In this document: positions 7,374 to 63,645 of the stretch, piece by piece | Layout: every line of letters starts with the position of its first letter | Position numbering within the stretch: the stretch's first letter is position 1 | Assembly (NCBI RefSeq): GCF_036365525.1 | Contig: NC_090395.1 | Span: 15,551,714 to 15,615,713, forward strand | DNA length: 64,000 bases | DNA from: Heterodontus francisci | Lineage: Eukaryota | Reading direction: 5' to 3' | Position numbers and translations under genes: made by a program | The notes under the pieces: generated by a model | Told to the model about the DNA's origin: nothing | The model's input: only the letters and a program-made list of their open reading frames with translations | Database searches by the model: none

Positions 7374-7699
7374 CCTTCAAGTTATTGCTTAATTGTGAGA
7401 TGTAAACCTCACCCTTCCCCCTTAGGGCAATGCCAATGTGAACACAGCCCTCATGAACATGCCAATGTGATGAGAGTCCTTGTTAACAAATTCTCTCCAG
7501 GGACTATAAACGGAAAGAACGTAACAGAGCTCAGGCATTAAGATGGACCTTTACTTCACTCTCTGCGAATGGAGACCAGGATGGCTACAAACAATTTGTG
7601 AGGTTCTCTATTGCCTCCTCTGTGTGTTCCTCTACTCATTTGCCCTCCTGCCTTGCTACCAGAGGATGTGTCAATTACATCATCATGGACCACAGATCC

Positions 7700-14814: not shown

Positions 14815-15108
14815 TCAGTATTCCTCCCCATCCTCTTCCTCCTCCAGAGAGTCTGCTCCCACCTCCTCGTAGTCCTTCTCCAAAGCTGCCAGGTCTTCCC
14901 GTGCCTCAGAGAACTCTCCTTCTTCCATCCCCTCACCCACATACCAGTGGACAAATGCACGCTTGGCATACATCAGGTCAAACTTATGATCGAGCCGAGC
15001 CCAGGCCTCAGCAATGGCAGTTGTATTACTCAGCATACAGACAGCACGCTGAACCTTGGCCAGGTCCCCACCAGGCACTGCGGTGGGAGGCTGGTAATTG
15101 ATCCCAAC
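14815..15108 (-). CDS. tuba5: Alpha-tubulin exon 5 (V353-Y449, stop)
   Basis: cag|GTTGGG: [97 protein letters not shown], 294 nt. Alpha-tubulin is certain; the paralog name is inferred from RABIF adjacency. Confidence 0.96.
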
Positions 15109-16196: not shown

Positions 16197-16928
<732 letters not shown>

Positions 16929-19932: not shown

Positions 19933-20081
19933 CAACTTTCGGACACGCTCCAACACCATGTCGATGATCTCCTTTCCAACAGTGTAATGCCCTCGGGCAT
20001 AGTTGTTGGCTGCATCTTCCTTTCCTGTGATCAGTTGTTCCGGGTGAAAGAGCTGGCGATAAATCCCAGTTCTGACCTCGT
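19933..20081 (-). CDS. tuba5: Alpha-tubulin exon 3
   Basis: ttctag|(D)[49 protein letters not shown]|gtgagt. 149 nt. Confidence 0.96.
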
Positions 20082-26400: not shown

Positions 26401-27114
26401 GTTGTGTGTGACCAGATAATTTGTATTGTCAGTGTTTAACAGCACAGGAGTAGCTAAGCTTCTGTAGAGTAGTGCTAGATCAGGGCACAGGCACTGCAGA
26501 AAGTAACAGGGCATTGGCCTGCAGGACACATGGTTGTGCAACTGCTGTTTGTGTCTAAGCATAAACCTAACCTCACAAAAACATGTAACCTTGACTGTTG
26601 AACCAGATCTATAATACTGCAACAATAAACATACCTGCGTACCTATAAATGCCTGTCAGTTAATAACCCAGGTCCAATGTGAATGAATAATGAATGTTAT
26701 CATGAATGATAACCGAGCTGCTGATTAAAGCTGTAATCACTGATACATCAGTCCCTGGTTTCACCAACAACTGACTGACCTGAAAGATATGTTAATTGGC
26801 TTAAGGTATAACTATTAAACTTCTCAGACAGCTGACCTATAACAGGCATCTCAAACATTAAAGACAGAAATCTGCCAAGCCTACACACCCACACAGAGAT
26901 TTTTATTAATTACATGTGCCAAAGGAGTCCAAATAATCCTTCACCCAGTCTGAACAGGAGCATACATCCCATCACACCACTGGAGGAGGCTCCACACTGA
27001 CATTAACAGAGGGCGGGGGACAATCTACCTTACAGACATTCCCCAAGATAAACCACAGGACTTTATCATCACATCCAGTCAGGCCACTGATACCCACTGC
27101 CATTTTGCCCCTTA

Positions 27115-27435
<321 letters not shown>

Positions 27436-28342
27436 TCATTCACCTGTCATTGCCATCTGCATATCATTAAAATGTTCCAAGGTGTAGCAGCAATTAAACC
27501 AAAAGCTGAATTCTTGCTGCAGCTCAGGGCTTTGTGTTTCACACACGTTCATTCCACAGGCTATATGCCCACATTCTGTTACCAGGCTTACTGCAAACGA
27601 CTCCTACAACTGACCTGGGGCTCAAGATGGGTATAACACTGATGTAAAAGATCCTGCAACAAGGCTTCATTGAGCCCAGTGCAGTGTGACTACACACACA
27701 TCTGTTCTTGTGTCTGCAGCAAGGTGACTCACGGCTGCAGTGGAGATAAAAAACCAGGTGGAGGGGGGAGTGGGAAGGCACTTAAAACACAATAATAACG
27801 CAGCTTTAAAAACTCCTCAGTTCCAACAAGCCCTACAGTTGTGAACAAGACCTTATATGGGCTGACAGGGTGGTGCATTTGTGGAAAGTACAAGCAGTCA
27901 AACCAGCTCAACTTGCTAGCTGATCACTGTGGGCCCAGAAGACAAAAAAGGTTAACCCCTTAGCTTTGCTCATACTCCCACAATATTTAAGGCACAAAGC
28001 AGACAGAGTGGGGAGCTGACACTTCAGGAAGCATTTCACCTTCAGCATCATTTGTGGGCATTAAACGTGCCAGGACAGAGGACATAGTTCAGAAATACAA
28101 ATACAAAAGTGCTGATAAACGTGAACTGACTGGGGTTCTTTTAGTAAAGGGAAAATGCTGCCTAACCCTCAGGGGTTAGAGCAAAGCAGCATTCCGAGCT
28201 CGGCGATACTATTATAACTTGGATAACAGATCTGGGGACAAGGAGAAGCAGCTTACACCAAGCTGCAGATAAATTTAACTGGCCCCCAACCACAAGGCAT
28301 GGGAATGAAGAGAAAACTCAAAGCAGCAGAGCTGAGCAAACA

Positions 28343-28757
28343 GGGTGGCACAGTGGTTAGCACCGCAGCCTCACAGCTCCAGCGACCCGGGTTCAATTCT
28401 GGGTACTGCCTGTGTGGAGTTTGCAAGTTCTCCCTGTGTCTGCATGGGTTTTCTCCGGGTGCTCCGGTTTCCTCCCACAAGCCAAAAGACTTGCAGGTTG
28501 GGAGGTAAATTGGCCATTATAAATTGCCCCTAGTATAGGTAGATGGTAGGGAAATATAGGGACGGGTGGGGATGTGGTATGAATATGGGATTAGTGTAGG
28601 ATTAGTACACCACTGACCACCTCCAGGCGCTTCCCCATTGTCTCTCGAGATAAGGAGGCCAAAGAAAGAAAATATAAAATGGGTGGTTGATGGTTGGCAC
28701 AGACTCAGGGGACCGAAGGGCCTGTTTCAGTGCTGTATCTCTAAACTAAACTAAACT
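28343..28757 (+). mobile_element. HE1 V-SINE carrying a ~60-bp A-tailed insertion (unit A)
   Basis: HE1 head/core/tail. Extra caccactgaccacctccagg...gaggccaaagaaagaaaa at ~28609-28672. Confidence 0.88.
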
Positions 28758-29260
28758 GAACAAAACAACAGCCTGATCACATCCACAGTGGGAAGGAGAG
28801 ATTCCCAAACATGACACAGCAAACTGAACAGAAATCTCCGAGTCTGTGGCTGCAGAAACCAGACAGGTTCAGCTGCAGTCTCCAACTGCCTGACACTTCG
28901 CTGGAAAGGCAGCAAGCTCACTCAAGCAGGGCAAACACCCCACGGAACACCTACCCTCCCCATCCCCCCCCCTCCCCCCCAAGGCAAAACCCCTCCCCCC
29001 CCCACCCACCCAAGCAAGACCCACCCCAACCCCCCACCGCAGGCAAAATCCCTCCCCCCAGGCAAGAAACACCCCCCCCACCTCAGGCAAAATCCTCCCC
29101 TCCCCCCCAGGCAAGAAACGCCCCAACCGCAGGGAAAATCCTACCCCCGCCCCGCCCCCGGGCGACATCTCCTACTGCCTGACACTTCACTGCAGAGGCA
29201 GCAAGCTCACTTCACTGCGCCGCGCCGCCTCGCCTCGCCCTGCCCAGCCCCAGTACTCAC

Positions 29261-29263
29261 CAT
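29261..29263 (-). CDS. tuba5: Alpha-tubulin exon 1 coding part (ATG only), proximal copy
   Basis: gcaatATG|gtgagt, the ATG-only first exon typical of vertebrate alpha-tubulins. Exons sum to 1350 nt = 449 aa + stop. Confidence 0.85.
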
Positions 29264-29720
29264 ATTGCCGATCCGCTTACCTCTCGCGCCAACTGCAAAC
29301 CCAACGCTCGCAGAGCCTTAAATAGAGAGCAGCCGAGAGGGCGGGTCTACCGATGGAAACCATCCGCCTATTGGTCATAACAGGCCATGGGCGGGGCTAC
29401 CAATAAAAATCTGCCGCCTTTCGCTCAGAAATAGGCAAGGGGCGGGGGTAACGCTGCAAACCTGCTGCCTATTGGTCAGTAACAAGCCAGACTGGAGCAG
29501 TTACAGCATTTCAAATAGATCCAAGTTCGTTTTAAATGACCGGCTGCATTGCTGACAACGCAAATGAAGCCTCATGCGCTCGTACATTCACTGTCTGCGA
29601 CGTTTTGGCAGCTGCCAATAGTAAAGATGGCGCTGCTCAATATATCACAAAAATGAAAACAAATGAAACCAAAATGGCCACTTCTGGTCCCGGCAACAAG
29701 TTGTTTAATGAATTTTATTG
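29264..29720 (-). promoter_or_regulatory. Proximal tubulin 5' UTR/promoter
   Basis: TATTTAA at 29318-29324, three GC boxes (~29339, 29388, 29438), three CCAAT boxes (~29370, 29400, 29471), YY1-like AAGATGGCG/AAAATGGCC (~29624, 29671). CpG-rich. Confidence 0.8.
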
Positions 29721-30109
29721 ATGATTATTTCAGGTCACAAACCCGAATTTTATATCAGTGAGCATCTTAAAAAGAGATTTCTAACATTTTGGAAGTTGGA
29801 ACAGATAAATCCTGGGAGCTCGTGTTCAGCATGAAGACCGGCAGAGAGCTGCTTCTGTGTTGTAATAAGAGCCAAATCAACAACCTGATCCAGCATCCCC
29901 TCAGTGAGCTTTGTGTTTAGACCTGAGCTCCGGGATAGCTGCATGTGCAGGATTGTGTGTGTATTTCAACAGAATCCGTGCCCTCACCCCTTCCTCCCCC
30001 TCGTCCGCTCGCTTTCCCACTCTCTCCTGCTCACAGTCTCCCTCCCCTCCCCGCCTATCTTGTCAGTTTCTTCTACACTTCCTCCATGCGGGGAAAAAGC
30101 GCTGCGATA

Positions 30110-32585
30110 GTGGGAGGGAGCGGGGACCAGTACCGGGAATGAACAGGGCAAAGTACTGGGGCCCAGTACTGGCGATGCAACGGGGACCAGCACCGGGAGG
30201 GAGCGGGGCAAAGTACTGGGGACCAGTACTGGGAGGCAGTGAGGCAATGTACTGGGAATCAGTACCGGGAGGGAGCGGGGCAAAGTACTGGGGACCAGTA
30301 CTGGGAGGGAGCGGGGCAAAGTACTGGGGACCAGTACCAGGAGGGTGTGGGGACCGGTATCGGGGACCTGTACCGGGAGGGAGTGGGGCAAAGTACTGGG
30401 GAGCAGTAATGGCGACCAGTACCAATCGGGAGTGAGGACCAGTATCGGGGACCAGCACCGGGAGGGAGTGGGGCAAAGTACTGGGGAGCAGTACCGGGCG
30501 GGAGTGAGGACCAGTATCGGGGACCAGCACCGGGAGGGAGTGGGGCAAAGTACTGGGGAGCAGTAATGGCGACCAGTACCAAACGGGAGTGAGGACCAGT
30601 ATCGGGGACCAGCACCGGGAGGGAGTGGGGCAAAGTACTGGGGAGCAGTAATGGTGACCAGTACCAGGCGGGAGTGAGGACCAGTATCGGGGACCAGCAC
30701 CGGGAGGGAGTGGGGCAAAGTACTGGGGACCAGTACCGGGAGGGAGTGGGGACCAGTATCAGGAGGGAGTGGGGCAAAGTACTGGGGACCAGCACCAGGA
30801 GGGAGTGGGGCAAAGTACTGGGGACCAGTAATGGGGACTAGTACCGGGCAGGAGCGGAGGAAAGTACTGGGGACCAGTATCGGGGACCAGCACCGGGAGG
30901 GAGTGAGGCAATGTACTGGGGACCAGTACCGGGAGGGAGTGAGGCAATGTACTGGGGACCAGTACCAGGAGGGAGCGGAGCAAAGTACTGGGGACCAGTA
31001 CCGGGAGGGAGCGGAGACCAGTATCGGGGACCAGTACCGGGAGGGAGTGAGGCAATGTACTTGGGACCAGTACTGGGAGGGAGCGGAGCAAAGTACTGGG
31101 GACCAGTACCGGGAGGGAGCGGAGACCAGTATCGGGGACCAGTACCGGGAGGGAGTGAGGCAATGTACTTGGGACCAGTACTGGGCGGGAGCGGAGCAAA
31201 GTACTGGGGACCAGTACTGGGAGGGAGTGAGGCAAAGTACTTGGGACCAGTACCGGGAGGGAGCGGAGCAAAGTACTGGGGACCAGTACCGGGAGGGAGC
31301 GGAGCAAAGTACTGGGGACCAGTACTGGGAGGGAGCGGAGCAAAGTACTGGGGACCAGTACCGGGCGGGAGCGGAGCAAAGTACTGGGGACCAGTACTGG
31401 GAGGGAGTGAAGCAAAGTACTTGGGACCAGTACTGGGGACCAGTACCGGGAGGGAGTGAGGCAATGTACTTGGGACCAGTACTGGGGACCAGTACCGGGA
31501 GGGAGTGAGGCAATGTACTTGGGACCAGTACTGGGGACCAGTACCGGGAGGGAGTGAAGCAAAGTACTTGGGACCAGTACCGGGAGGGAGTGAGGCAATG
31601 TACTTGGGACCAGTACCGGGCGGGAGCGGAGCAAAGTACTGGGGACCAGTACTGGGAGGGAGTGGGGCAATGTACTGGGGACCAGTACCGGCGGGAGCGG
31701 AGCAAAGTAAAGTACTGGGGACCAGTACCGGGAGGGAGCGGGGCAAAGTACTGGGGACCAGTACTGGGAGGGAGCGGGGCAAAGTACTGGGGACCAGTAC
31801 CGGGAGGGAGCGGGGCAAAGTACTGGGGACCAGTACCGGGAGGGAGCGGGGCAAAGTACTGGGGACCAGTACCGGGAGGGAGCGGGGCAAAGTACTGGGG
31901 ACCAGTACCGGGAGGGAGTGGGGCAAAGTACTGGGGACCAGTACCGGGAGGGAGTGGGGAGCAGTACCAGTAGGGAGCAGGAACCAGTAACGTGGACCAG
32001 TACCAAGAGGGTGCGGGGACCAGTACTGGGAATGAACAGGGCAAAGTACTGGGGACCAGTACCGGGAGGGAGTGGGGAGCAGTACCGGTAGGGAGCGGGA
32101 ACCAGTAACGTGGACCGGTACTGGGGAGGCAGCGGGGACCAGGACTGAGGACCAGTACTAGGAGGGAGCAGGGACCAGTACGACGGAGCCGTGCCGGGAG
32201 GGAGCGGGGTCCAATACCAGAACCGGCAGGGAGCAGGGAACAGTACCCGGCAGCAGTGGGGAGCAGTACTGCAGACCTGTAGCGAGAAGGAGCCAGGACC
32301 AGTACCGGGCACCGGTAGCAGAAGGGAGGGTGTTCAGTACCGGGGACCAGTACCGGGAGGAAGCTGGGAGCAGTACCGGGGAGCCGAAGTGGGAGGGAGA
32401 GGTGAGCAGTACTAGGGGCTGGTCCTGGGAGGTAGCGGGTCCCAGTACCGGGAGGCAGCAGGGACCAGCACTGGTAGCGTGAGGGAGCGGGTTGCAGAAG
32501 TAGGAGGGAGCAGGGGCCAGTACTGGGTACCAGTACCGGGAGGGAACGGGGAGCAGTACCGGGGATCAGAAGGAGGGAGCGAGGC
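30110..32585. repeat. G-rich minisatellite, ~36-bp unit GGGGACCAGTACCGGGAGGGAGCGGGGCAAAGTACT with variant units
   Basis: Near-perfect units at ~31715-31955. 12-aa periodic translation (PLPPGTGPQYFA). Degenerate ends. Confidence 0.95.
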
Positions 32586-32957
32586 TTTCTTACTGTAATT
32601 ATAGAGGACCTTAGTGAGACAGAGTGGGGAGCTGACACTTTAGGAAGCATTTCACCTTCAGCATCATTTGTGGGCATTAAACGTGCCAGGACAGAGGACG
32701 TAGTTCAGAAATACAAATACAAAAGGGCTGATAAACGTGAACTGACTGGGGTTCTTTTAGTAAAGGGAAAATGCTGCCTAACCCTCAGGGGTTAGAGCAA
32801 AGCAGCATTCCGAGCTCGGCGATATTATTATAACTTGGATAACAGATCTGGGGACAAGGAGAAGCAGCTTACACCAAACTGCAGATAAATTAAACTGGCC
32901 CCCAACCACAAGGCATGGAATGAAGAGAAAACTCAGAGCAGCAGAGCTGAGCAAACA

Positions 32958-33370
32958 GGGTGGCACAGTGGTTAGCACCGCAGCCTCACAGCTCAGCGAC
33001 CTGGGTTCAATTCTGGGTACTGCCTGTGTTGAGTTTGCAAGTTCTCCCTGTGTCTGCATGGGTTTTCTCCGGGTGCTCCGGTTTCCTCCACAAGCTAAAA
33101 GACTTGCAGGTTGGGAGGTAAATTGGCCATTATAAATTGCCCCTAGTATAGGTAGATGGTAGGGAAATATAGGAACGGGTGGGGATGTGGTATGAATATG
33201 GGGATTAGTGTAGGATTAGTACACCACTGACCACCTCCAGGCACTTCCCCATTGTCTCTCGAGATAAGGAGGCCAAAGAAAGAAATATAAAATGGGTGGT
33301 TGATGGTTGGCACAGACTCAGGGGACCGAAGGGCCTGTTTCAGTGCTGTATCTCTAAACTAAACTAAACT
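32958..33370 (+). mobile_element. HE1 V-SINE with the same insertion (unit B)
   Basis: Duplicate of 28343-28757. Confidence 0.88.
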
Positions 33371-33840
33371 GAACAAAACAACAGCTGATCACATCCACAG
33401 TGGGAAGGAGAGATTCCCAAACATGACACAGCAAACTGAACAGAAATCTCCGAGTCTGTGGCTGCAGAAACCAGACAGGTTCAGCTGCAGTCTCCAACTG
33501 CCTGACACTTCGCTGGAAAGGCAGCAAGCTCACTCAAGCAGGGCAAACACCCCACGGAACACCTACCCTCCCCATCCCCCCCCCACCAAGGCAAAACCCT
33601 CCCCCCCCCCCACCCACCCAAGCAAGACCCACCCCAACCCCCCACCGCAGGCAAAATCCATCTCCTCCCCCCCCAGGCAAGAAACGCCCCACCTCAGGGA
33701 AAATCCTTCCCCCGCCCCGCCCCGGGCGACATCTCCTACTGCCTGACACTTCACTGCAGAGGCAGCAAGCTCACTTCACTGCGCCGCCTCGCCCTGGCCT
33801 GGCCCGGCCCGGCCCGGCCCAGCCCAGCCCCAGTACTCAC

Positions 33841-33843
33841 CAT
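33841..33843 (-). CDS. tuba5: Duplicated alpha-tubulin exon 1 (ATG only), distal copy
   Basis: Same ATG|gtgagt context as 29261-29263, offset 4580 bp. Confidence 0.7.
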
Positions 33844-34300
33844 ATTGCCGATCCGCTTACCTCTCGCGCCAACTGCAAACCCAACGCTCGCAGAGCCTTA
33901 AATAGAGAGCAGCCGAGAGGGCGGGTCTACCGATGGAAACCATCCGCCTATTGGTCATAACAGGCCATGGGCGGGGCTACCAATAAAAATCTGCCGCCTT
34001 TTCGCTCAGAAATAGGCAAGGGGCGGGGGTAACGCTGCAAACCTGCTGCCTATTGGTCAGTAACAAGCCAGACTGGAGCAGTTACAGCATTTCAAATAGA
34101 TCCAAGTTCGTTTTAAATGACCGGCTGCATTGCTGACAACGCAAATGAAGCCTCATGCGCTCGTACATTCACTGTCTGCGACGTTTCGGCAGCTGCCAAT
34201 AGTAAAGATGGCGCTGCTCAATATATCACAAAAATGAAAACAAATGAAACCAAAATGGCCACTTCTGGTCCCGGCAACAAGTTGTTTAATGAATTTTATT
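33844..34300 (-). promoter_or_regulatory. Distal duplicated tubulin promoter
   Basis: Near-identical to 29264-29720. TATTTAA at 33898-33904; GC, CCAAT and YY1-like motifs intact. Confidence 0.75.
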
Positions 34301-34684
34301 GATGATTATTTCAGGTCACAAACCCGAATTTTATATCAGTGAGCATCTTAAAAAGAGATTTCTAACATTTTGGAAGTTGGAACAGATAAATCCCTGGGAG
34401 CTCGTGTTCAGCATGAAGACCGGCAGAGAGCTGCTTCTGTGTTGTAATAAGAGCCAAATCAACAACCTGATCCAGCATCTCCTCAGTGAGCTTTGTGTTT
34501 AGACCTGAGCTCCGGGATAGCTGCATGTGCAGGATTGTGTGTGCATTTCAACAGAATCCGTGCCCTCACCCCTTCCTCCCCCTCGTCCGCTCGCTTTCCC
34601 ACTCTCTCCTGCTCAGTCTCCCTCCCGTCCCCATCCAGTCAGTTTCTTCCACACTTCCCCCATGCAGGGAAAAAGCGCTGCGAT

Positions 34685-35660
34685 AGCGGGCGGGAGTGGG
34701 GGGACCTGCACCGGGAGGCAGTGGGGAACAGTACCAGTAGGGAGCGGGAACCAGTAATGTAGACCAGTACCGAGAGGGGAGCGGGGAGCAGTACTGGTAG
34801 GGAACGTGGACCAGTACCGGGAGGGAGCAGGGACCAGAATCGGGAAGCAGTGGGGAGCAGTACCGGAATGAACAGGGCAAAGTACTGGGGACCAGTACTG
34901 AGAAGGAGCGGGGAGCAGTAACGTGGACCGGTACCGGGGAGGCAGCGGGGACCAGGACTGAGGACCAGTACCAGGAGGGAGCAGGGACCAGTACCGGGGG
35001 AGTGGGACCAATACCGCGGAGCCATGCCAGGAGGGAGCGGGGTCCAATACCAGAACAGTACCGGCAGGGAGCGGGGAACAGTACCCAGCAGCAGTACCGG
35101 GAGGCAGTGGGGAGCAGTACTGCGGACCCGTAGCGAGAAGGAGCCAGACCAGTACCGGTAGCAGAAGGGAGCATGGTCCAGTACCAGGGACCAGTGCGGG
35201 GAGGGAGCGGTGTTCAGGAGTGGGGACCAGTGCCGGGGACCAGTGTGGGGTGGGAGCGGTATTCAGTACCGGGGACCAGTGCCAGGTGGGAGCGGTGTTC
35301 AGTACCAGGAGGGAGCGGGGACCAGTACCGGGAGGAAGCCGGGAGCAGTACCGGGGAGCCGAAGTGGGAGGGAGAGGTGAGCAGTACTAGGGGTTGGTTC
35401 CGGGAGGTAGCGGGTCCCAGTACCGGGAGGCAGCAGGGACCAGTAATGGAGTGATCGGGGAGCAGTACTGGAGACTGGTGCAGGGAATGAACTGGTAGTG
35501 GGAGGGAGCAGAAGCGGGAGGGAGCGGGGAGGCAGAACTGTGGACCAATATCGGGAGGGAACGGGGAGCAGTACCGGTTACCAGTAGGGAACGGGGAGCA
35601 GTACTGGGTACCAGTTACCGGGAGGGAACGGGGAGCAGTACCAGGGATCAGAAGCAGGAG
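34685..35660. repeat. Shorter degenerate copy of the same minisatellite
   Basis: Repeated cagtaccggg/gggagcggg motifs, colinear with 31950-32585. Confidence 0.85.
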
Positions 35661-36225
35661 GGAGCAAGGATTTGAGTACAAGCGCAAGGATGTCTTACTG
35701 CAATTATACAAGGCCTTGGTGAGCCCACATCTGTGCGCGGTTTTGGTCTCCTTATCTGAGGAAGGATCTTCTTGCCATGGAGGGAGTGCAAAGATGATTT
35801 ACTAGGCTGATTCTTGGGATGGCAGGATTGACATATGATGAGAGGTTGGTTAGACTAGGCCTATATTCACTAGAATTGGAAGAATGAGAGGGGATCTCAT
35901 AGAAACCTATAATATTCTAACTGGACTAGACAGGCTAGATGCAGGATGTTCCCGATGGCTGGGTAGTCCAGAACCAGGGGTCACAGTCTCAGGATATGGG
36001 GTATGCCATTTAGAACGAGATGCAGAGAAATTTCTTCACTCAGAGGGTGGTGAACCTGTGGAATTAAATATTATTCAAGAAGAGATTAGATATATTTCTT
36101 AATGTCAAAGGGATCAAGGGATATGGGGAGAAAGTGAGAACAGGGTACTGAATTAGATGATCAGCCATGATCTTTATTGAATGGGCAGAGCAGCCTGAAT
36201 GGCCTACTCCAGCTCCTATTTTCTT
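35660..36225 (+). mobile_element. CR1 3' fragment
   Basis: MRGDLIETYNILTGLDRLDA. Same family as 10366-10900. Confidence 0.85.
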
Positions 36226-36439
36226 GGGAGCAGGGGCAGGAGGGGAGGCGAAGATGTGAGGCCAAAATGACAAATGACCATTCCTTGCACATGTGCGAAT
36301 TAGTCGTATTCACACAGCAAGCCAGGTGCTGATGTAGGCTGCGCATGCGCAGCATCATACTGACAGCAAGCGTCTGTTCTGCACTCGTGCAAATCTGGGA
36401 GCGCTCTGATGTTGCTGGCGGGGAACTTTGTCAGGAATC

Positions 36440-36630
36440 ACTTTTCTTCCACAGGATGTGGGTGTAGCTTTCTAGGCAGCATTTTTTGTCCATACCCTAA
36501 TTGCCCTTGAACTAAGTGGCTTGATTGGCCACTTCAGAGTCAACCACATTGCGGTGGGTCTAAATAACATGTAGGCTAGACCAGGTAAGGACGACAGATT
36601 TCCTTACTTCCCTAAAGGACATTAGTCATC
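36440..36630 (-). mobile_element. DeuSINE 3' fragment
   Basis: ggatgtggg...ccctaattgcccttga...agaccaggtaaggacgacagatttcc is the reverse complement of the SacSINE1-like core/tail. Confidence 0.7.
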
Positions 36631-37199
36631 TCAAAGCATTCATTTTCCACTTGTTAAGTGTGCAGCCAGGTTTATGTTAATGCTACTGTCAACATCTTCC
36701 TCTAAAATAATTGGTTCCAATGCTCCCCACTTATATATCACAACCTGTTGATTTTAATATTACTTCTCTTATCCCATTACTTTTTGCTTATGCCCAATTT
36801 TTACTCATCATCCCAATTATAACTAGTCCATTATGTCTTATCCCTCTCCACAAACACCCACTGAGCTATAACATAGTGATCCTCCGCCCCACCGCCCCCC
36901 CCCCCCAAACCAATGTGCGATATTAATGGTATAGCTCCTTTCAACCCCCCCCCAGTGTGGGAATATCAGTGGAACTGCCCCTCCCTTCCCCATTGCGGGC
37001 TATCAGTGGTACTATTTCCCCCCATCCCACCAATTATTGAATCATTGGTACAGTCCCCTCTCTTCTCCCCCCCCCACAGTGGTACCCCCTCCCCTTTTGT
37101 GGATTAGTAGTGGTACCGCCCCTCCACCCCCCCAAAACAATGCCAGGATCTGATTGGGCTGCTCACCACGACAGCACAGGGGCATTCAGAAGATTTTCT

Positions 37200-37205
37200 T
37201 TTAAT
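37200..37205 (-). terminator. Probable RABIF poly(A) signal ATTAAA
   Basis: Plus-strand tttaat about 285 nt past the stop codon. Confidence 0.4.
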
Positions 37206-37490
37206 AACAACCAAAAAATACAGCCGAGCTTGTCACCACAGTGCTGCACACGACCCAGAATACTGGACTGGTGAGCATGTCACAGTTGAAGAGCAGCTGT
37301 TTGAATTCTACACTGCGACTTGCACTGATACTTTTATGTAGCTTTCCATTGGGACACTATGTGGGGCAGTTACATGTCTGGTTCCCAGTAACAGGCTGCA
37401 GGCAGAGTGTGAACTGACAGTGAGAGACAGATCCATCCTCTCAGATGATTGTCCTGTGCCCCTGTGAAAATGCTGTCTCCTCACTTTCCA

Positions 37491-37739
37491 CTATTCATGC
37501 TGCACACGATCCAAAGCCACATAAAAGCTCTTCTTGTCATCCAGGCAGTGCCCAGCCAATGGCCCAATTTCACAGTCAGCACAGACCAAATACTTGATGT
37601 TGTTCACATTCTTTGTGAAGCCCACATTCTCAAAGGTGTACATGTCATCAACGAACCAGTGCTCTTTGTAGCATGTCCCTTCTACTGAGCTTTCCTCGGT
37701 GCCCAGTGCCACCCTCTGCCTCATGGATGGAAGAAAGAG
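37491..37739 (-). CDS. RABIF: RABIF/MSS4 (Rab-interacting factor) exon 2
   Basis: ttgcag|LFLPSMR...EHWFVDDMYTFENVGFTKNVNNIKYLVCADCEIGP..HCLDDKKSFYVALDRVQHE*. Matches the MSS4 C-terminal two-thirds including FENVGF and the CxxC Zn ligand pair. Confidence 0.93.
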   Translation of the reverse strand, partial: LFLPSMRQRVALGTEESSVEGTCYKEHWFVDDMYTFENVGFTKNVNNIKYLVCADCEIGPLAGHCLDDKKSFYVALDRVQHE

Positions 37740-37809
37740 CTGCAAGACAAAACACACCCGTCAATTGCATGCCCACTCAGCACTGGTTTCACCTTGGCTG
37801 TGTGAGGGC

Positions 37810-38100
37810 CAGCTTGAGTCTGACTAAACAAAATGAATTTTTTGAGGAGGTCACTAACATGGTGGATAGGGCAGTATGTATGAATGTTGTCTATATGGAC
37901 TTCCAGAAGGCATTTAATAAGGTTAACTCAAGAGATCACGATAAAAATAAATGCACACTGAACTGGAGGTACCTTGTGACATGGGTTGGGAGAGTGTGGA
38001 GGGACAATGCATATGTATTTCAAATAGGCAGCGTGAGTAGTGGTGCCCCAGACCTGTATTAGGGCCTCAGCTTTTCGACTATAATTATAAATGATTTAGA
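37810..38100 (+). mobile_element. Old CR1 RT fragment in RABIF intron
   Basis: EFFEEVTNMVD...VVYMDFQKAFNKV. Confidence 0.75.
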
Positions 38101-38101
38101 T

Positions 38102-38391
38102 GGGCGGCACAGTGGCGCAGTGGTTAGCACCGCAGCCTCACAGCTCCAGCGACCCGGGTTCAATTCTGGGTCCTGCCTGTGTGGAGTTTGCAAGTTCCTC
38201 CCTGTGTCTGCATGGGTTTCCTCGGTGCTCCGGTTTCCTCCCACATGGCAAAAACTTGCAGGTTGATAGGTAAATTGGCAATTAGCAATTGCCCCTAGTA
38301 TAGGTAGGTGGTAGGGAAATATAGGGACAGGTGGGGATGTGGTAGAAACATGGGATTAGTGTAGGATTAGTATAAATGGGTGGTTAACGGT
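38102..38391 (+). mobile_element. HE1 V-SINE (cut by gap)
   Basis: gggcggcacagtggcgcagtggttagcacc head and V-core. Confidence 0.9.
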
Positions 38392-38591
38392 NNNNNNNNN
38401 NNNNNNNNNNNNNNNNNNNNNNNNNNNNNNNNNNNNNNNNNNNNNNNNNNNNNNNNNNNNNNNNNNNNNNNNNNNNNNNNNNNNNNNNNNNNNNNNNNNN
38501 NNNNNNNNNNNNNNNNNNNNNNNNNNNNNNNNNNNNNNNNNNNNNNNNNNNNNNNNNNNNNNNNNNNNNNNNNNNNNNNNNNNNNNNNNNN
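38392..38591. other. Assembly gap (200 N)
   Basis: Run of N. Confidence 1.
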
Positions 38592-38649
38592 TGGCGCCAG
38601 GCCGCTCCCCGACAGCAGCAACCGAGCGGCCGCCGAACCCAGTCTCCAT
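38592..38649 (-). CDS. RABIF: Probable RABIF exon 1, 5' part (rest lies in the gap)
   Basis: Strong Kozak GCGCCATGG, METGFGGRSVAAVGERPGA..., CpG-rich, just downstream of ETS motifs. The first CxxC is not visible and is presumably in the N-gap. Confidence 0.6.
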
Positions 38650-38745
38650 GGCGCCTCCAGAGCGAGGGCGGGACAACCACAACTTCCGGTTCCGTAGCAC
38701 ACTTCCGGAAACATGGAACTGTGACAACGACACTTCCGCACAAGT
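38650..38745 (-). promoter_or_regulatory. TATA-less RABIF promoter with tandem ETS/GABP motifs
   Basis: CCGGAAGT at 38682-38689 and 38701-38708, GCGGAAGT at 38732-38739, GC box at ~38666. Confidence 0.65.
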
Positions 38746-38749
38746 GACT

Positions 38750-41700
38750 TCTTGGATCGTGATATCCCGGAGAGTGATATTCCGAAGAGTGACGCTCCCG
38801 GATAGTGATGTTACCGGAGAGTGATATTCCTGGATAGTGAGTGTCTGGATAGTGATATTCCCGTAGAGTGACACTCGCGGATAGTGTCACTCTGGATAGT
38901 GACACTCCCAGATAGTGATATTCCCAGATAATTATATTCCGGATAGTGTAATTCCTGATAGTGACACTCCGGATAATGACACTCCCAGATAGTGATATTC
39001 CCAGATAATTATATTCCCGGATAGTGTAATTCCTGATAGTGACACTCCGGATAATGACACTCCCAGGTAGTGACATTCCCCGATCGTGACACTCTCGGAT
39101 AGTGATGTTACCGGAGAGTGATATTCCTGGATTGTGTTATTCCTGCAGAGTGACACTCCAGATAGTGACATTCCCGGATAGTGACAGCACGGATAGTTAC
39201 ACTCCGGATAGTGACATTCCCAGCTAGTGAGCCCCTCGGATAGTAATATTCCCAGATAGTGACACTCCGGATTGTGACATTCTTGTTCGTGACAGTCCCG
39301 GATAGTGACATTCATGTATAGTAACACTCTGGATAGTTACACTCCAGATAGTGACATTCCCGGATAGTGACATTCCCAGACAGTGACTCCCCAGGATAGT
39401 GACACTCCCAGATAGTAACATACCCAGATGATGACACCCAGATCGTGACACTCCCGGACAGTGATATTACCAGAGAGTGACATTCCCAAATAGTAATATT
39501 CCCAGAGAGTGACATTCCTGGAGAGTGATATTCCCAGATAGTGACACTCCCAGAGAGTGATATTCCTGGAGAGTGATATTCCTGGATAGTGATATTCCCA
39601 GAGAGTGATATCCCTGGATAGAGATATTCCAGGAGTGTGACACTCACAGATAGTGATATTCCCAGAGAGTGAAACTCCCAGATAGTGATATTCCCCGGGA
39701 GTGATATTCCCAGATAGTGACATTCCTGGAGAACGACACTGCCGAATAGAGATATTCCCCCGAGGATGATATTCCCGAGAGTGACACACCCGGACAGTGA
39801 TATTACCAGAGAGTGATATATTCAGATCATGATTTTTCCAGAGAGTGACACTCCTGGATAGTGATATTCCCATAGAGTGACATTCCCAGAGAGTGATATT
39901 CGTGGATAGTGACACTCCTGGATAGTGATATTCCATGGTAGTGATATTCCCGGAGAGTGATATTCCCAGATAGTGATATTCCCAGAGTGTGATATTCCCG
40001 GATAGTGACACTCCCAGAGATTGATATTCCTGGATAGTGATATTCCTGGATCGTGACACTCCCGGATAGTGATATTCTCAGAGAGTGATATTCCCGGAGA
40101 GTGATATTCCTGGAGAGTGGTATTCCGAAGAGTGACATTCCCAGATAGCGATATTCCCACAAGTGATATCCCAGATATTGATATTCCCAGAGTGTGACAA
40201 TCACAGATAGTGATATTCTCCAGGAATGATATTCCCAGATAGTGACATTCCTGGAGATTGACACCGCCGAATAGTGATATTCCACGAGGATGATATTCCC
40301 GAGAGTGACACACCCGGACAGTGATATTACCAGAGAGTGATATATTCAGATCATGATTTTTCCAGAGAGTGACACTCCTGGATAGTGATATTCCCATAGA
40401 GTGACATTCCCAGAGAGTGATATTCCCAGAGAGTGATATTCGTGGATAGTGACACTCCTGGATAGTGATATTCCATGGTAGTGATATTCCCGGAGAGTGA
40501 TATTCCCAGATAGTGATATTCCCAGAGTGTGATATTCCCGGATAGTGACACTCCCAGAGATTGATATTCCTGGATAGTGATATTCCTGGATCGTGACACT
40601 CCCGGATAGTGATATTCCCAGAGAGTGATATTCCCGGAGAGTGATATTCCTGGAGAGTGGTATTCCGAAGAGTGACATTCCCAGATAGCGATATTCCCAC
40701 AAAGTGATATCCCCAGATATTGATATTCCCAGAGTGTGACAATCACAGATAGTGATATTCTCCAGGAATGATATTCCCAGATAGTGACATTCCTGGAGAT
40801 TGACACCGCCGAATAGTGATATTCCACGAGAGAGATATTCCCGGGTGTGACACTCTGGATACTGATATTCCCAGAGAGTGATATTCCCAGATAGTGATAT
40901 TCCCAGAGAGTGATATTCCTGAATAGTGATATTCCCAGAGAGTGACACTCCCAGATAGTGATATTCCTGGAGATTAATATCCCTGGATAGTGATATTCCC
41001 GGAGTGTGACACTCGCGGATAGTGATATTCCCGGAGAGTGACACTCCTGGATAGTGATATTCCCCCAGAGCTGTATTCCCGGAGAGTGACATTCCTGGAG
41101 AGTGACAGTTCCGTATAGTGATATTCGCCAAGAGTGATATTCCCGAGAGTGACACTCCGGTTGCTGATATTACCGGAGACTGATGTTACCAGATAGTGAT
41201 ATTCCCAGAGAGTGATATTCCTGGAGAGTGACATTCCTGGAGAGTTATATCCTAGATAGTGACAGTCCTGGATAGTGATATTCCCAGAGAGTGATATTCC
41301 CGGGAGTGACACTCCGGATACTGAAAATCCCGGAGAGTGATATTCCCTCATAGCTATATTCCTGGAGAGTGACATTCCTGGAGAGTGATATTGCTGACTG
41401 TGACTGTCCTGGATAGTGATATTCCAGGAGTGTGATATTCCTGAATAGTGATATTCCCGGAGAGTGATACTCCCATATAGTGATATTCTCGGAGAGTGAT
41501 ATCCCTGGATAGTGATATTCTCAGAGAGTGACACCCATGGATAGTGAAATTTCCGGAGAGTGACAGTCGAGAGTGATATACATGGATAGTTATATTCCCC
41601 GAGAGTGATATTCCCAAGAGTGACAATCATGGATAGTGATAATCCCAAGAGTGAAACTCCTGGATAGTGATATTACCGGAAATTGATAGTCCTGGATAGT

Positions 41701-44700
41701 TATATGCCCGGAGAGTGACACTCCTGGATAGTGATATTCCCCGAGAATGATATTCCCAGGAGTGACGCTCCCGGATCGTGATATTACCGGAGAGTGATAT
41801 TCCTGGATAGTGTTATTCCTGGAGAGTGACTGTCCCAGATAGTAATATTCCCTGAGAGTGACACTCCCGGATAGTGTTCTTCCTGGAGAGTGACACTGCC
41901 GGATAGTAATATTTCCCGTGAGTGATATTCTGGGATAGTGACACTCCCAGATACTGAAACTGCTTATAGTGATATTCCCGGATAGTGAGTGTCTGGATAG
42001 TGATATTCCCGGATAGGGATATTCCGTAGAGTGACACTCATGGATAGTGTCACTCTGGATAGTGACACTCACGGATAGTGACATTCCCGGCTAGTAATTC
42101 ACCCAGATAGTAACATGCCCGGATAGTGACACTCTGGATTGTGACTCTCCCGGATACTGACACTCCGGATAGTGACATTCTTGTTCGTGACAGTCCCGGA
42201 TAGTGACATACATGTATAGTAACACTCTGGATAGTTACACTCCAGATAGTGACATTCCCGGATAGTGACATTCCCAGATAGTAACTCCCCAGGATAGTGA
42301 CACTCCCAGATGGTAACATACCCAGATGGTGACACCCAGATAGTGACACTCCGGGATAGTGATGTTCCCGGTGAGTGAAAACCCCTGATAGTGATATTCC
42401 TGGAGAGTGACACTCCCAGATAGTGATATTCCCGGATAATGACATTCCTGGAGAGTGACACTCCAGACAGTGATATTACCAGAAAGTGATATAGTCAGAT
42501 AGTGATTTTCCCAGAGAGTGACACTCCTGCATAGTGATATTCCCAGAGAGTGACATTCCTGGAATGTGATATTCCCAGATAGTGACACTCCCAGATAGTG
42601 ACACCCAGATAGTGACAATCCTAGATAGTGATGTTCCCGGTGAGTGATATCCCCGGATAGTGATACTCCTGGAATGTGACTCTCCCAGATAGTGACATTC
42701 CTGGAGAGTGACACTCCTGGATCGTGATATTCCCCGAGGGTGATATTCCCGAGAGTGACACTCCCGGATGGTGATATTACCAGAGAGTGATATTCCCAGA
42801 GAGTGATATTCCTGGATAGTGATATTCCCGGAGAGTGATATCCCTGGATGGTGATATTCCAGGAGTGTGACACTGACGGAGAGTGATATTCCTGGAGAGT
42901 GACACACCCGGATAGTGATATTCCCCGGGAGTGATATTCCCAGATAGTGACATTCCTGGAGAAAGACACTGCTGAATCGAGATATTCCCCGAGGGTGATA
43001 TTCCCGAGAGTGATACTTCCGGACAGTGATATTACCAGAGAGTGATATATTCAGATCGTGATTTTCCCAGAGAGTGACACGCCTGGATAGTGATATTCCC
43101 ATAAAGTGGCATTCCTGGAGAGTGATAGTCCCAGATAGTGATATTCCCAGAGAGTGATATTCCCAGAGAGTGATATTCCTGAATAGTACTCCCGGAGAGT
43201 GACACTCCCAGATAGTGATATTCCTGGAGACTAATATCCCTGGAAGTGATATTCCCAGAGTGTGACATAGCGGATCGTGATAGTCCCGGAGAGTGACACT
43301 CGCGGATAGTGATATTCCCCGAGAGTGGTATTCCCGGATAGTCACATTCCTGGAGAGTGACAGTTCCGTATAGCAATATTCGCCAAGAGTGATATTCCCG
43401 AGAGTGACACTCCGGATGCTGATATTACCGGAGACTGATGTTACTAGATAGTGATATTCCCAGAGAGTGATATTCCTGGAGAGTGATATTCCTAGATAGT
43501 GACAGTCCTGGATAGTAATATTCCCAGAGAGTGATATTCCCGGAGAGTGACCTACCTACAGATTGACACTGCCGAATAGTGATATTCCCGGAGAGTGATA
43601 TTCCCTGATAGCTATGTTCCTGGAGAGTGTCATTCCTGGATAGTGATAATCCTAGATAGTGACAGTCCTGGATAGTGATTTTCCTGGAGTATGATATTCC
43701 CAGATAGTGATATTCCCAGAGAGTGATATTCCTGAATAGTGATATTCCCGGATAGTGATACTCCTGGATAGTGATATTCTCGGAGAGTGATATCCCTGGA
43801 TAGTGATAGTCCCAGAGTGTAACACCCATGAATAGTGATATTCCCGGAGTGTGATACTCCCGGAGAGTGAGATTCCGGAGACAGACACTTGAGAGTGATA
43901 TACACAGATAGTGATATTCCCAAAGAGTGACACTCCTGGATAATGATATTCCCCGAGAGTGATATTCCCAAGACTGACACTCATTGATAGTGATATTCCC
44001 AAGAGTGACGGCGCTGGATAGTGATATTACCGGAGAGTGATATTCCCGGATAGTTATATGCCCAGATAGTGACACTCCTGGATAGTGATATTCCTCAAGA
44101 GTGATATTCCCAAGAGTGACGCTCCTGGATAGTGATATAACCGGAGAGTGATATTCCTGGATAGTTATATGCCCGGAGAGTGAAACTCCTGGATAGTGAT
44201 ATTCCCCGAGTGTGATATTCCCAAGAGTGACGCTCCCAGATAGTGATATTATCGGAGAGTGATATTCCTGGATTGTGTTATTCCTGGAGAGTGACAGTTC
44301 CAGATAGTAATATTCCCTGAGAGTGACACTCCCGGATAGTGATATTCCTGGAGAGCGACACTGCCGGATAGTAATTTCCATTGAGTGATATTCTGGGACA
44401 GTGACACTCCCAGATACTGAAACTGCTTATAGTGATATTCCTGGATAGTGAGTGTCTAGATAGTGATATTCCCGGATAGGTATTTTCCCGTATAGTGACA
44501 GTCTGGATAGTGACACTCCCGGATCGTGATATTCCCAGATAATTTATTCCTGGATAGTGTCATTCCAGATAGTGACATTCCTCGATGGTGACATTCCCAG
44601 ATAGTGACATTCCCGGATAGTGAACTTGCTGGAAAATGACGCCCCCGGATAGTGACACTCACGGATAGTTACAGTCCGAATAGTGACATTCCCAGCTAGT

Positions 44701-47700
44701 GAGTCCCCCAGATAGTAACATTCCCGGATAGTGACACTCTGGATTGTGACACTCCCGGATACTGACACTCCGGATAGTGACATTCTTGTTTGTGACAGTC
44801 CCGGATAGTGACATTCATGTATAGTAACACTCTGGATAGTTACACTCCAGATAATGACATTCCCGGATAGTGACATTCCCAGATAGTAACTCCCCAGGAT
44901 AGTGACACTCCCAGATAGTAACATACCCAGATGATGACACCCAGATAGTGACACTCCGGGATAGTGATATTCCTGGATAGTGATATTCCCGAATAGTGAC
45001 ATTCCTGGAGAGTGACACTCCCAGATAGTGATATTCCTGGAGAGTGATATTCCTGGATAGTGACATTCCTGGAGAGTGACACTCCCGGACATTGATATTA
45101 CCAGAGAGTGCTATAGTCAGATAGTGATTTTCCCGGAGAGTGACTTTCCTGGAGAGTGATATTCCCAGATAGTGACACTCCCACAGAGTGATATTTCCAG
45201 AGAGTGATATTCCTGGAGAGTGATGTTCCTGGATAGTGATATTCCAAGAGAGTGATATCCCTGGATAGTGATATTCCAGGAGTGTGACACTCACGGATAG
45301 TGATATTCCCAGAGAGTGACACTCGCAGATAGTGACATTCCCGGAGAGTGACACTCCCGGATAGTGATATTCACGGAGAGTGACACTCGAGGGTGATATT
45401 CCCGGATAGTGATATTCCCAAGGAGGGACACTCCTGGATAGTGATATTCCCTGAGAGTGTTATTCCCAAGAGTGATTCTCATGGATAGTGATATTCCCAA
45501 GAGTGACACTCCTGGATAGTGATATTCCCGGAGAGTGATATTCCCGGATAGTTATATGCCCGGAGAGAGACACTCCTGGATAGTGATATTCCCCGAGATT
45601 GATATTCCGAAGAGTGACGCTCCCGGATAGTGATATTACCGGAGAGTGATATTCCTGGATTGTGTTATTCCTGGAGAGTGACACTCCCGGATAGTGATAT
45701 TCACGGAGAGTGACACTCGAGGGTGATATTCCCGGATAGTGATATTCCCAAGGAGGGACACTCCTGGATAGTGATATTCCCTGAGAGTGTTATTCCCAAG
45801 AGTGATTCTCATGGATAGTGATATTCCCAAGAGTGACACTCCTGGATAGTGATATTCCCGGAGAGTGATATTCCCGGATAGTTATATGCCCGGAGAGAGA
45901 CACTCCTGGATAGTGATATTCCCCGAGATTGATATTCCGAAGAGTGACGCTCCCGGATAGTGATATTACCGGAGAGTGATATTCCTGGATTGTGTTATTC
46001 CTGGAGAGTGACACTGCCGGATAGTAATATTTCCCGTGAGTGATATTCTGGGATAGTGACACTCCCAGATACTGAAACTGCTTCTTGTGATATTCCCGGA
46101 TAGTGAGTGTCTGGGTAGTGATATTCCCGGATAGGGATATTCCCGTAGAGTGACACTCGCGGATAGTGTCACTCTGGATAGTGACACTCCCAGATAGTGA
46201 TATTCCCAGATAATTATATTCCCGGATAGTATCATTCCAGATAGTGACACTCCGGATAGTGACACTCCCAGATAGTGACATTGCTGGAAAATGACTCCCC
46301 TGGATAGTGACACTCCCAGATAGTGACATTCCTCGATCGTGACACTCTCGCATAGTGACACTCCCGGATAGTGACACCACGGATAGTTACACTCCGGATA
46401 GTGGCATTCCCAGCTAGTGAGTCCCCCGGATAGTAATATTCCCAGATAGTGACACACCGGATTGTGACACTCCCGGATACTGACACTCCGGATAGTGATA
46501 TTCTTGTTCGTGACAGTCCCGGATAGTGACATTCATGTATAGTAACACTCTGGATAGTTACACTCCAGATGTTGACATTCCCGGATAGTGAAATTCCCAG
46601 ATAGTGACTCCCCAGGATAGTGACACTCCCAGATAGTAACATACCCAGATGATGACACCCAGATAGTGACACTCCTGGATAGTGATATTCCTGGAGAGTG
46701 ATATTCCCAGATAGTGACATTCCTGGAGAGTGACACTCCCAGATAGTGATATTCACTGAGAGTGATATTCCCGAGAGTGACACTCCCGGACAGTGATATT
46801 ACCAGAGAGTGACATTCCCAAATAGTCATATTCCCAGAGAGTGACATTCCTGGATAGTGATATTCCCAGATAGTGACACTCCCAGAGAGTGATATTCCTG
46901 GAGAGTGATATTCCTGGATAGTGATATTCCCAGAGAGTGATATCCCTGGATAGCGATATTCCAGGAGTGTGACACTCACAGTTAGTGATATTCCCAGAGC
47001 GTGACACTCCCGGATAATGATATTCCCCGGGAGTGATATTCCCAGATAGTGACATTCCTGGAGAACGACACTGCCGAATAGAGATATTCCCCGAGGATGA
47101 TATTTCCGAGAGTGACACTCCCGGACAGTGATATTACCAGAGAGTGATATATTCAGATCATGATTTTCCCAGAGAGTCATATTCCTGGATAGTGATATTC
47201 CCAAAGAGTGACATTCCCAGAGAGTGATATTCCCGGAGAGTGATATTTGTGGATAGTGACACTCCTGGATAGTGATATTCCATGGGAGTGATATTCCCGG
47301 AGAGTGATATTCCCAGATAGTGATATTCCCAGAGAGTGATATTCCCGGAGAGTGATATTCCTGGAGAGTGGTATTCCGAAGAGTGACACTCCCAGATAGC
47401 GATATTCCCACAGAGTGATATCCCTCGATAGTGATATTCCCAGAGTGTGACAATCGTGGATAGTGATATTCCCCAGGAGTGATATTCCCAGATAGTGACA
47501 TTCCTGGAGATTGACACTGCCGAATAGTGATATTCCCCGAGAGAGATATTCCCGGGAGTGACACTCCGGATACTGATATTCCCAGAGAGTGATATTCCCA
47601 GATAGTGATATTCCCAGAGAGTGATATTCCTGAATAGTGATATTCCCGGAGAGTGACACTCCCGGATAGTGATATTCCTGGAGATTAATATCCCTGGATA

Positions 47701-48870
47701 GTGATATTCCAGGAATGTGACACTCACAGGAAGTGATATTCCCGGAGAGTGACACTCCCGGATAGTGATATTCCCCCAGAGTTGTATTCCCGGATAGTGA
47801 CATTCCTGGAGAGTGACAGTTCCGTATAGTGATATTCGCCAAGAGTGATATTCCCGAGTGTGACACTCCGGTTGCTGATATTACCGGCGACTGATGTTAC
47901 CAGATAGTGATATTCCCAGAGAGTGATATTCCTGGAGAGTGATATTCCTAGATAGTGACATTCCCGGATAGGAATATTCCCATATAGTGACACTCTTGGA
48001 TAGTGTCACTCTGGATAGTGACACTCCCTGATAGTGATACTCCCAGATAATTAAATCCTGGATAGTGTCATTCCAGATAGTGACACTCCATATAGTGACA
48101 CTCCCAGATAGTGACATTCCTCGATAGTGACACTCCCGAATAGTGACATTGCTGGAAAATGACTCCACCAAATAGTGGCATTCCTCGATAGTGACACTCC
48201 CGGATAGTGAAATTCATGGATAGTGACACTCCCGGATAGTGACATTCCTGGATATTGACACTCTGGATAGTGACTCTCCCAGATAGTGACATTCCTCGAT
48301 AGTGACACTCCCGGATAGTGACATTCCTGGATAGTGACATTCCCAGATAGTGACATTCCTGGATATTGATACTCTGGATAGTTACAGTCAGGATAGTGAC
48401 ATTCCCGGCTAGTGACTCCCCCGGATAGTAACATTCCTGGATAGTGACACTCAGGACAGTGCCACACCCGGATACTGACACTCCGGATAGTGACATTCCT
48501 GTTCGCGACAGTCCCAGATAGTGACATTCCTGTATACTAACACTTTGGTTAGTTACACTCCATTAGTGACATTCCCGGATATGACATTCCCGGATGGTGA
48601 CACTCCGGATCGTGACACTCCTGGAGAGTGACATTCCCGATAGTGTCATTCCCAGATAGTGATACTGCCGGTTAGTGACATTCCCAGATAGTGACACACC
48701 AGATAGTGAAGTTCTGGATTGTGACATTCCTGGATAGTGACACTGCGGTTAATGACATTCCCAGATAGTGACACACCGGATATTGACACCCTGGATAGTG
48801 AGACATCGGATCGTGACTCACCTGGATAGTGATGCTCCAGATAGCAACACCTCTGGATAGTGACAATCTG
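38750..48870. repeat. ~10.1-kb satellite array, ~17-bp monomer GA(T/G)AGTGA(T/C)A(T/C)TCC(C/T)(A/G)(G), with higher-order repeats
   Basis: Continuous gatagtgatattcccag / gagagtgacactcccgg units. Recurring landmark variants at kb scale. Confidence 0.97.
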
Positions 48871-63290: not shown

Positions 63291-63645
63291 TAGAATCATA
63301 GAAATATTATGGCACAGAAGGAGGCCATTCAGCCCATCATGTCCGTGCTGCCTGAAAAAAACTAGCCGCCCAATCTAATCCCACCTTCCAGCACTTGGTC
63401 CATTGCCTTACCGATTACAGCACTTCAGGTGCAGGTCCAGGTACCTTTTAAAATAATTGAGGGTTTCTGCCTCCACCATCATTCCTAGCAGTGAATTCCA
63501 GACGCCCACCAACCACTGGGTGAAAAAGATTTTCCTCATGTCCCCTCTAATCCTTCTACCAATCAGCTTAAATCTGTGCCCCCTGGTAATTGACCTCTCT
63601 GCCAGGGCAAACAGGTCCTTCCTGTCTACTCTATCTAGGCCCCTC
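63291..63645 (-). mobile_element. CR1 3' fragment
   Basis: Reverse complement of the 2320-2640 family. Confidence 0.85.

Follow-up and report, generated by a model that had tools for sequence, protein, structure and literature searches.

The window described here is a 64,000-nucleotide stretch of the Heterodontus francisci genome (NCBI RefSeq assembly GCF_036365525.1, contig NC_090395.1, positions 15,551,714 to 15,615,713 of the forward strand), and our subject is a five-exon alpha-tubulin gene on its minus strand, in which a head-to-tail copy of the promoter and exon 1, together with part of intron 1, precedes a single gene body. The joined exons amount to 1350 nt and encode 449 amino acids with no internal stops, in a protein that begins with MREC, contains K40 and terminates in GEEY. 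Comparing the window with itself aligned 28001-31084 with 32617-35665 and delimited two units, one proximal (P) and one distal (D), with left borders at 28001/32617, right borders at 32618/35723, and the letters AG common to 28001-2, 32617-8 and 35722-3. Each unit holds 1.2-1.3 kb of intron 1; one breakpoint lies inside that intron and the other upstream of the promoter, as the initial annotation of this DNA had proposed and as the self-comparison and the exon positions bear out. A tandem duplication of promoter and exon 1 is confirmed at this locus, with the following parts:

28001..32616, no strand assigned: proximal unit P, 4616 bp, with the 5' part of intron 1, exon 1, promoter, a poly(A) signal pair, an expanded minisatellite and a short CR1-like end
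32617..35723, no strand assigned: distal unit D, 3107 bp, with the same components as P and a short minisatellite
32617..32618, no strand assigned: AG microhomology at the junction, crossed by contigs
29261..29294, minus strand: exon 1 of P, a predicted 31-nt 5' untranslated region (UTR) plus ATG, its start placed from the TATA/initiator spacing
33841..33874, minus strand: exon 1 of D, with no difference from the P copy
29318..29475, minus strand: promoter P, with TATTTAA, three GC boxes and CCAAT in both orientations; CpG observed/expected ratio 0.83 over 29100-29650
33898..34056, minus strand: promoter D, with the same motifs; CpG observed/expected ratio 0.79 over 33670-34230
27123..27345, minus strand: exon 2, single copy, beginning at 27345
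19933..20081, minus strand: exon 3
16221..16901, minus strand: exon 4, residues 126-352
14815..15108, minus strand: exon 5 including the stop codon, ending in GEEY

In both copies the ATG (29263-29261 in P, 33843-33841 in D) is followed directly by the splice donor GTGAGTAC, and the initiator A (29294 and 33874) stands 30 nt downstream of the first T of TATTTAA (29324 and 33904). Over the 355 bp of 29246-29600, the copies differ by one 1-nt indel and by no substitution. The claim that both promoters are intact, with TATA, CCAAT and GC boxes ahead of ATG-only exons, agrees with the motifs present in each copy, and the identity of the two first exons upholds the related claim that either would yield the same protein. 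Each promoter, at 29339-29490 and 33919-34071, is built of three degenerate 51-bp repeats with GC-box and CCAAT-like parts, so that an older internal triplication would have made the promoter in the first place. A second sequence resembling a 5' splice site, GAG/GTAAGC, lies in the 5' UTR on the minus strand (29273-29283 and 33853-33863), some 20 nt before the post-ATG donor, and its match to U1 equals that of the latter (7 of 11); were it used, the mRNA would lack the start codon and the MREC motif.

Support for the junction was sought in four of the 20 listed sequencing runs over the 551 bp around the join (32400-32950), a contig being counted as bridging if at least 31 letters lay on either side of it. 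X1 and X4 are DNA runs and X3 is RNA-like, its type a guess, as no candidate run was recorded as RNA in the run search; these three derive from one sample (S1), possibly the assembled one, and X16 derives from another individual. Seven runs of a second organism (organism B), whose shares were small (0.07-0.12), were left aside. By the 31-letter rule one of the four runs bridges, namely X4, whose contig spans 32539-32671 with 0 mismatches and reaches 78 letters to one side of the join and 55 to the other. The X1 contig (32531-32641, 86 and 25 letters, 0 mismatches) falls 6 letters short, and X3 and X16 gave no bridge. Contig depth in S1 is 2-5, and 2-3 in the DNA runs that cross the join. The start of P continuing into intron 1 is seen in X1, X4 and X3, and the end of D continuing into a CR1-like fragment in X1 and X3, so that, with the junction itself, three distinct ends exist in the reads. 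D-specific letters occur at 32700 and 32726 in X4 and at 32825 in X1 and X4, and the P letters at these positions occur in X3, the first two also in X1; with both letters present in reads, the differences are not consensus errors. A false duplication of haplotypes would leave the join without reads across it, and here error-free contigs cross it in two runs. These contigs exclude an assembler's joining of two haplotypes, zygosity and population frequency being outside their reach. The initial annotation had argued against an assembly stutter and had named long reads across 32617 as the check: the mismatch-free contigs of X4 and X1, two DNA runs from the one sample S1, cross that position and sustain its argument. 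An X16 read ending at ~32620, as judged from bin depths, was rejected as junction support, since it stops at the end of a possible AGAC microhomology. By the same depths, two further X16 reads, maybe from one molecule, seem to cover ~32865-32915; they have the D letter at both 32878 and 32892 and could represent an allele of a single-copy locus.

Four repeat features lie within the units or at their edges:

32579..32618, plus strand: junction-side CR1-like remnant, with 8 substitutions in 40 bp relative to 35684-35723 and a 20-bp loss
35667..36184, plus strand: CR1-like long interspersed element (LINE) fragment containing the outer breakpoint
30182..31959, no strand assigned: 36-bp G-rich minisatellite array, expanded in P
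28345..28755, plus strand: element resembling a short interspersed element (SINE), found in both units (in D at ~32960-33370) and carrying a nested 69-bp insert

In the junction-side 40 bp, six of the eight substitutions are derived on the junction side and two are ambiguous. The microhomology would grow from two letters to four (AGAC, to 32620) if the ancestral letters are those seen in two other CR1-like copies in the window. We propose that the duplication may have arisen when synthesis switched template between the CR1-like fragment and intron 1, helped by 2-4 letters of microhomology, and that the altered 40 bp could reflect error-prone or foreign-templated synthesis at the switch. The minisatellite core 13-mer occurs 38 times in P versus once in D, and a 906-aa frame spanning the array was judged a repeat artefact. 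The SINE-like element of the units is 92-93% like other copies in the window, and an Rfam scan of 27000-38390 returned 0 families.

Divergence between the units is uneven. The intron part beside the left border differs at 12 of 628 positions (1.9%), with 9 transitions and 3 transversions, a spectrum that is one of ordinary ageing. The rest of the intron part (0/330), exon 1 with the promoter (0/355) and the upstream sequence (3/430) together form a core with 3 substitutions in 1115 positions (0.27%), significantly fewer than on the left (Fisher p 6e-4). Beyond it, the minisatellite flank differs at 11 of 101 positions and the anchored distal blocks at 26/474 to 38/622 (5.5-6.1%, biased low), in keeping with the annotated divergence of the distal halves; next to the junction the figure is 8/40 (20%). 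A 285-bp low-complexity segment (8 substitutions) was excluded from the tests. Scan statistics on 26 substitutions over 1844 positions gave p<1e-4 both for the densest 100 bp and for the sparsest 1000 bp. Distal values of 8.3% and 11.6% were discarded as inflated by mis-registered repeats. We also considered whether the inner copies had gathered more derived changes throughout: 9 of 9 polarised changes point inward, but 6 fall in one 40-bp cluster and CpG-type changes divide 3:3, and we retain the bias as a junction effect only.

A report on the epaulette shark gives a rate of 7e-10 per generation and an allelic diversity of 0.2% (pi 0.002) (PMC10587355). At that rate, 1.9% corresponds to ~14 million generations, or 7-68 million across the interval given there, a loose dating from another species, and the 0.27% of the core is close to the allelic diversity of that shark (PMC10587355). 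The duplication looks older than a fresh copy-number variant, and the mosaic suggests an old event with a core homogenised by conversion or kept by selection. The mosaic is significant, and the near-identical tract inside its more diverged flanks extends past the motifs; conversion, selection or fast change of the minisatellite may explain it. After the initial event, the copies would have diverged by 2-6% and the minisatellite would have grown only in P, with a 1.4-kb promoter-bearing core kept near-identical through gene conversion, selection or both.

A second gene, of the Mss4/RABIF family, lies upstream of the tubulin gene on the same strand, and the duplicated segment carries a poly(A) signal pair ~420 nt upstream of the start site in each unit:

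37491..37739, minus strand: last coding exon of the Mss4/RABIF-family gene (Pfam PF04421, E 4.3e-27)
34227..34300, minus strand: poly(A) pair in D, AATAAA at 34300-34295 and ATTAAA at 34290-34285, with a U-rich downstream element
29646..29719, minus strand: poly(A) pair in P, AATAAA at 29719-29714 and ATTAAA at 29709-29704, followed by the U-rich element as in D; any D transcript would contain this pair within its intron

In the best 30-nt stretch downstream, both pairs have 20 T, versus 6-16 for the other 27 of the 31 minus-strand hexamers in 14000-38390. The D-unit pair probably terminates the Mss4/RABIF gene upstream. Its copy in P stands 4155 nt into any D transcript, before promoter P and exon 2. 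From the D start to exon 2 is 6.5 kb, versus 1.9 kb from P, and the path from the D donor to exon 2 holds 12 decoy acceptors with a pyrimidine tract and AG (11 of them within the minisatellite, the twelfth at its flank). U1 protects intronic poly(A) sites better near the start than far from it (PMC6428223).

Run X3 bears on which promoter is used. Both of its contigs over 32617-32950 are P-lettered (depth 4.1-5.7) and either match intron 1 on the P side or run on into it; within 32400-32950 it has no junction-crossing contig and no D letters in its intron contigs, and its depth is 0 at 32590-32608. X3 also contains, at a depth of 53.7 (~10x that of the intron contigs), a D-type contig of 1411 nt that covers the distal half and maps to ~34075-35766. 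This contig is probably the Mss4/RABIF 3' UTR ending at the D poly(A) pair; with appreciably lower probability, it is divergent RNA from promoter D. It is ~282 nt shorter than D in the window (34811-35319), which suggests a second minisatellite allele; no 25-mer repeat or good intron explains the shortfall, and 13-mer and 16-mer repeats 280 and 278 apart fit the allele explanation. Overall, X3 holds 0.41 of the sampled words, where 0.32 would be expected from exon 2 and the P intron, 0.54 with the D distal half added and 0.9 with the P array.

Partial 5' tandem gene duplications of this type are already known. A literature search, with most subscription journals outside its coverage, returned no paper on this locus. 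Arabis alpina PEP1a/PEP1b has the same layout: a duplication of ~2 kb, with 6.3 kb from copy to copy, took in the proximal promoter and exon 1 along with part of intron 1 (PMC3527215). Either PEP1 exon 1 is spliced to the single exon 2, the predicted protein is the same, and presence of the distal copy varies among accessions (PMC3527215). The PEP1 upstream sequences have diverged and both copies are transcribed with different patterns (PMC3527215), whereas the tubulin cores are identical. The tubulin gene differs further in that its exon 1 encodes Met only and its two mRNAs would be indistinguishable, that a likely terminator of the neighbour was copied and that use of the distal copy is putative. 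The 79,156-bp CYP19A1 tandem duplication in aromatase excess syndrome, in which the distal exon is used and the gene overexpressed, likewise contains only promoters and first exons, leaves the protein unchanged and has been attributed to fork stalling and template switching (PMC3272822). It is a large, young and pathogenic human variant (PMC3272822), whereas the tubulin unit is 3-4.6 kb long and 2-6% diverged, and the product of its gene is autoregulated. The protocadherin, UGT1 and GCNT2 loci share the arrangement of tandem promoter and first-exon units spliced to shared constant exons, and gene conversion occurs among neighbouring protocadherin units (PMC1885805). They have many first exons that supply large, distinct parts of the protein (PMC1885805), whereas the tubulin gene has two copies of one codon, and its first exons, both Met only and identical, encode no distinct protein segments. 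In closely spaced human tandem genes, the upstream gene ends <2 kb from a promoter on the same strand, a distance that is likely ~0.4 kb here; the human pairs are unduplicated (PMC8972054).

From these observations we favour, with about even confidence, a model in which P is the main tubulin promoter and D an attenuated spare. RNA initiated at D would meet the decoys and the copied poly(A) signal before exon 2, and much of it would be cut short; whatever spliced through would be the same mRNA as that from P and subject to autoregulation through MREC, a motif that mediates tubulin mRNA degradation when free tubulin is in excess (PMC10403363). With MREC retained, any gain in dosage would be damped, and the net change is likely small. 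The dosage effect that the initial annotation envisaged is so far unsupported, given the copied likely terminator, the P-type intron contigs of X3 and this damping; its two working promoters have found no support as yet either, with a likely terminator on the D path, a P-only intron in X3 and no junction contig in that run, and the identity of the promoter cores gives none to its start of regulatory divergence. Several points weigh against the model. Promoter D has a full CpG island and every motif, and the published analogues PEP1 and CYP19A1 both use the distal copy (PMC3527215, PMC3272822). The 1411-nt contig runs ~200 nt beyond the proposed signal, to ~34075; a divergent plus-strand RNA begun 200 nt upstream of the D start would have such an end as well, and promoter D would then be busy. 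The Mss4/RABIF 3' UTR would need 3.2 kb to reach the proposed terminator, and on the way from the Mss4 stop codon it would pass three weaker hexamers (37200, 36753 and 36173). X3 is a single run with unstranded contigs that cannot show absence and in which bubble-popping may hide D letters, and the 282-nt shortfall may mean that its D-type contig comes from the other haplotype, possibly one without the duplication. The second individual shows no junction bridge in 32400-32950, and the segment borders of the divergence comparison were picked after inspection, though the scan statistics stay significant. Evidence at the locus is from one sample, and the function of the duplicate is putative.

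The same observations can be read in four other ways. Both promoters may work, much as PEP1a/b do, with D RNA protected, spliced to exon 2 and either adding dosage or tissue range or interfering with P; we hold this as a tentative possibility, which would account for an intact promoter D with 0 substitutions in 355 bp and a CpG island, for retention of the duplicate through ~2-6% divergence and, if it is divergent RNA from promoter D, for the abundant X3 contig, and which has precedent in the distal copies used in PEP1 and CYP19A1 (PMC3527215, PMC3272822). It fares worse with the X3 intron contigs, which neither cross the junction nor carry D letters, with the strong-looking poly(A) signal on the D path and with identical cores that offer little basis for differing tissue patterns. 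It is unlikely, in our view, that D is a neutral passenger, silent or irrelevant and perhaps polymorphic, with its core held identical by conversion alone between copies 4.6 kb apart. Such a history would explain why near-identity runs past the motifs into plain intron (no substitution in 330 bp) and upstream sequence (3 in 430 bp) and ends where the length-divergent minisatellite starts, and the lack of D-type intron RNA in X3 and the second allele suggested by the 282-nt shorter contig also count in its favour; yet unequal crossing-over should remove near-identical direct repeats over millions of generations (a point dated with PMC10587355), and the intron part beside the junction has not been homogenised.

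Quite improbable is a role for selection in keeping a terminator-promoter-terminator-promoter cassette that tunes tubulin transcription, with the outer copy absorbing Mss4/RABIF read-through. In that cassette, D would fire an attenuated unit cut at the copied signal or, with U1 protection, run on to dampen or add to P, and conversion would have held both promoters identical for millions of generations. In human tandem pairs, polymerase pausing rather than avoidance of interference is reported as the main shaping force (PMC8972054), which weakens the insulation idea. The two mRNAs being letter-identical, such tuning, if true, would escape ordinary RNA sequencing. An assembly artefact, whether haplotypes laid in tandem or a chimeric read, we consider highly improbable. 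An N gap does lie 2.7 kb away, D does contain several 1-nt homopolymer indels (the covered one, 32916, is seen in no S1 contig) and the bridging runs, at depth 2-3, are maybe from the assembly's own sample; against these stand the same mismatch-free junction in two separate runs, a junction with its own derived 40-bp end and microhomology, and a divergence of 1.9-6%, at least 10x the shark diversity of pi 0.002 (PMC10587355). Returning to P as the main promoter with D as its attenuated spare, the locus illustrates how a promoter duplication in a tight gene pair can carry along the neighbour's likely terminator and thereby limit its own effect. With an exon 1 of one codon, any reason for retaining the duplicated promoter must be regulatory, and if both copies are active or the duplicate is fixed across species, it would offer a testable model of tandem-promoter interference.

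The gene body was identified through exon 4, on which Pfam finds both PF00091 and PF03953, the tubulin GTPase and C-terminal domains, and whose best match among solved structures has an E value of 1.6e-152, the named chains among the best 60 being alpha-tubulins. Exon 5, compared with solved structures under a strict cut-off of 1e-58, gave 0 matches and hence no isotype. The five-exon arrangement is reminiscent of TUBA3/TUBA8, any assignment among the TUBA1/3/4/8 lineages being tentative. The best solved alpha-tubulins have Ile219 and Thr225, and this protein reads Thr at residue 219 and Ile at residue 225 (~16600-16625, minus strand); this swap is either a true change or a consensus error.

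In the Mss4/RABIF-family gene, the exon reads GPLAGHC at ~37550-37565 (minus strand), which, compared with orthologues, resembles two compensating 1-nt indels close together, a possible sign of consensus indel errors. The N gap (38392-38591) begins 2.7 kb past the duplicated unit, with its left edge inside a SINE-like element, and it appears to cut the likely exon 1 of this gene (region 38392-38660), in which a candidate minus-strand ATG (38649) follows several CCGGAAGT-like motifs. Directly upstream of its likely promoter, 38754-48865 is a 10-kb degenerate satellite with a 16-bp base period, ~635 copies and higher-order periods of 31 and 301 bp. Farther out, the broken frames at 59400-63400 include gag-, reverse-transcriptase- and integrase-like pieces and resemble a long terminal repeat retrotransposon. 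The gene pair is flanked by inverted copies of a LINE-like fragment (6014-7378 and 49733-51063) that are 83% alike.

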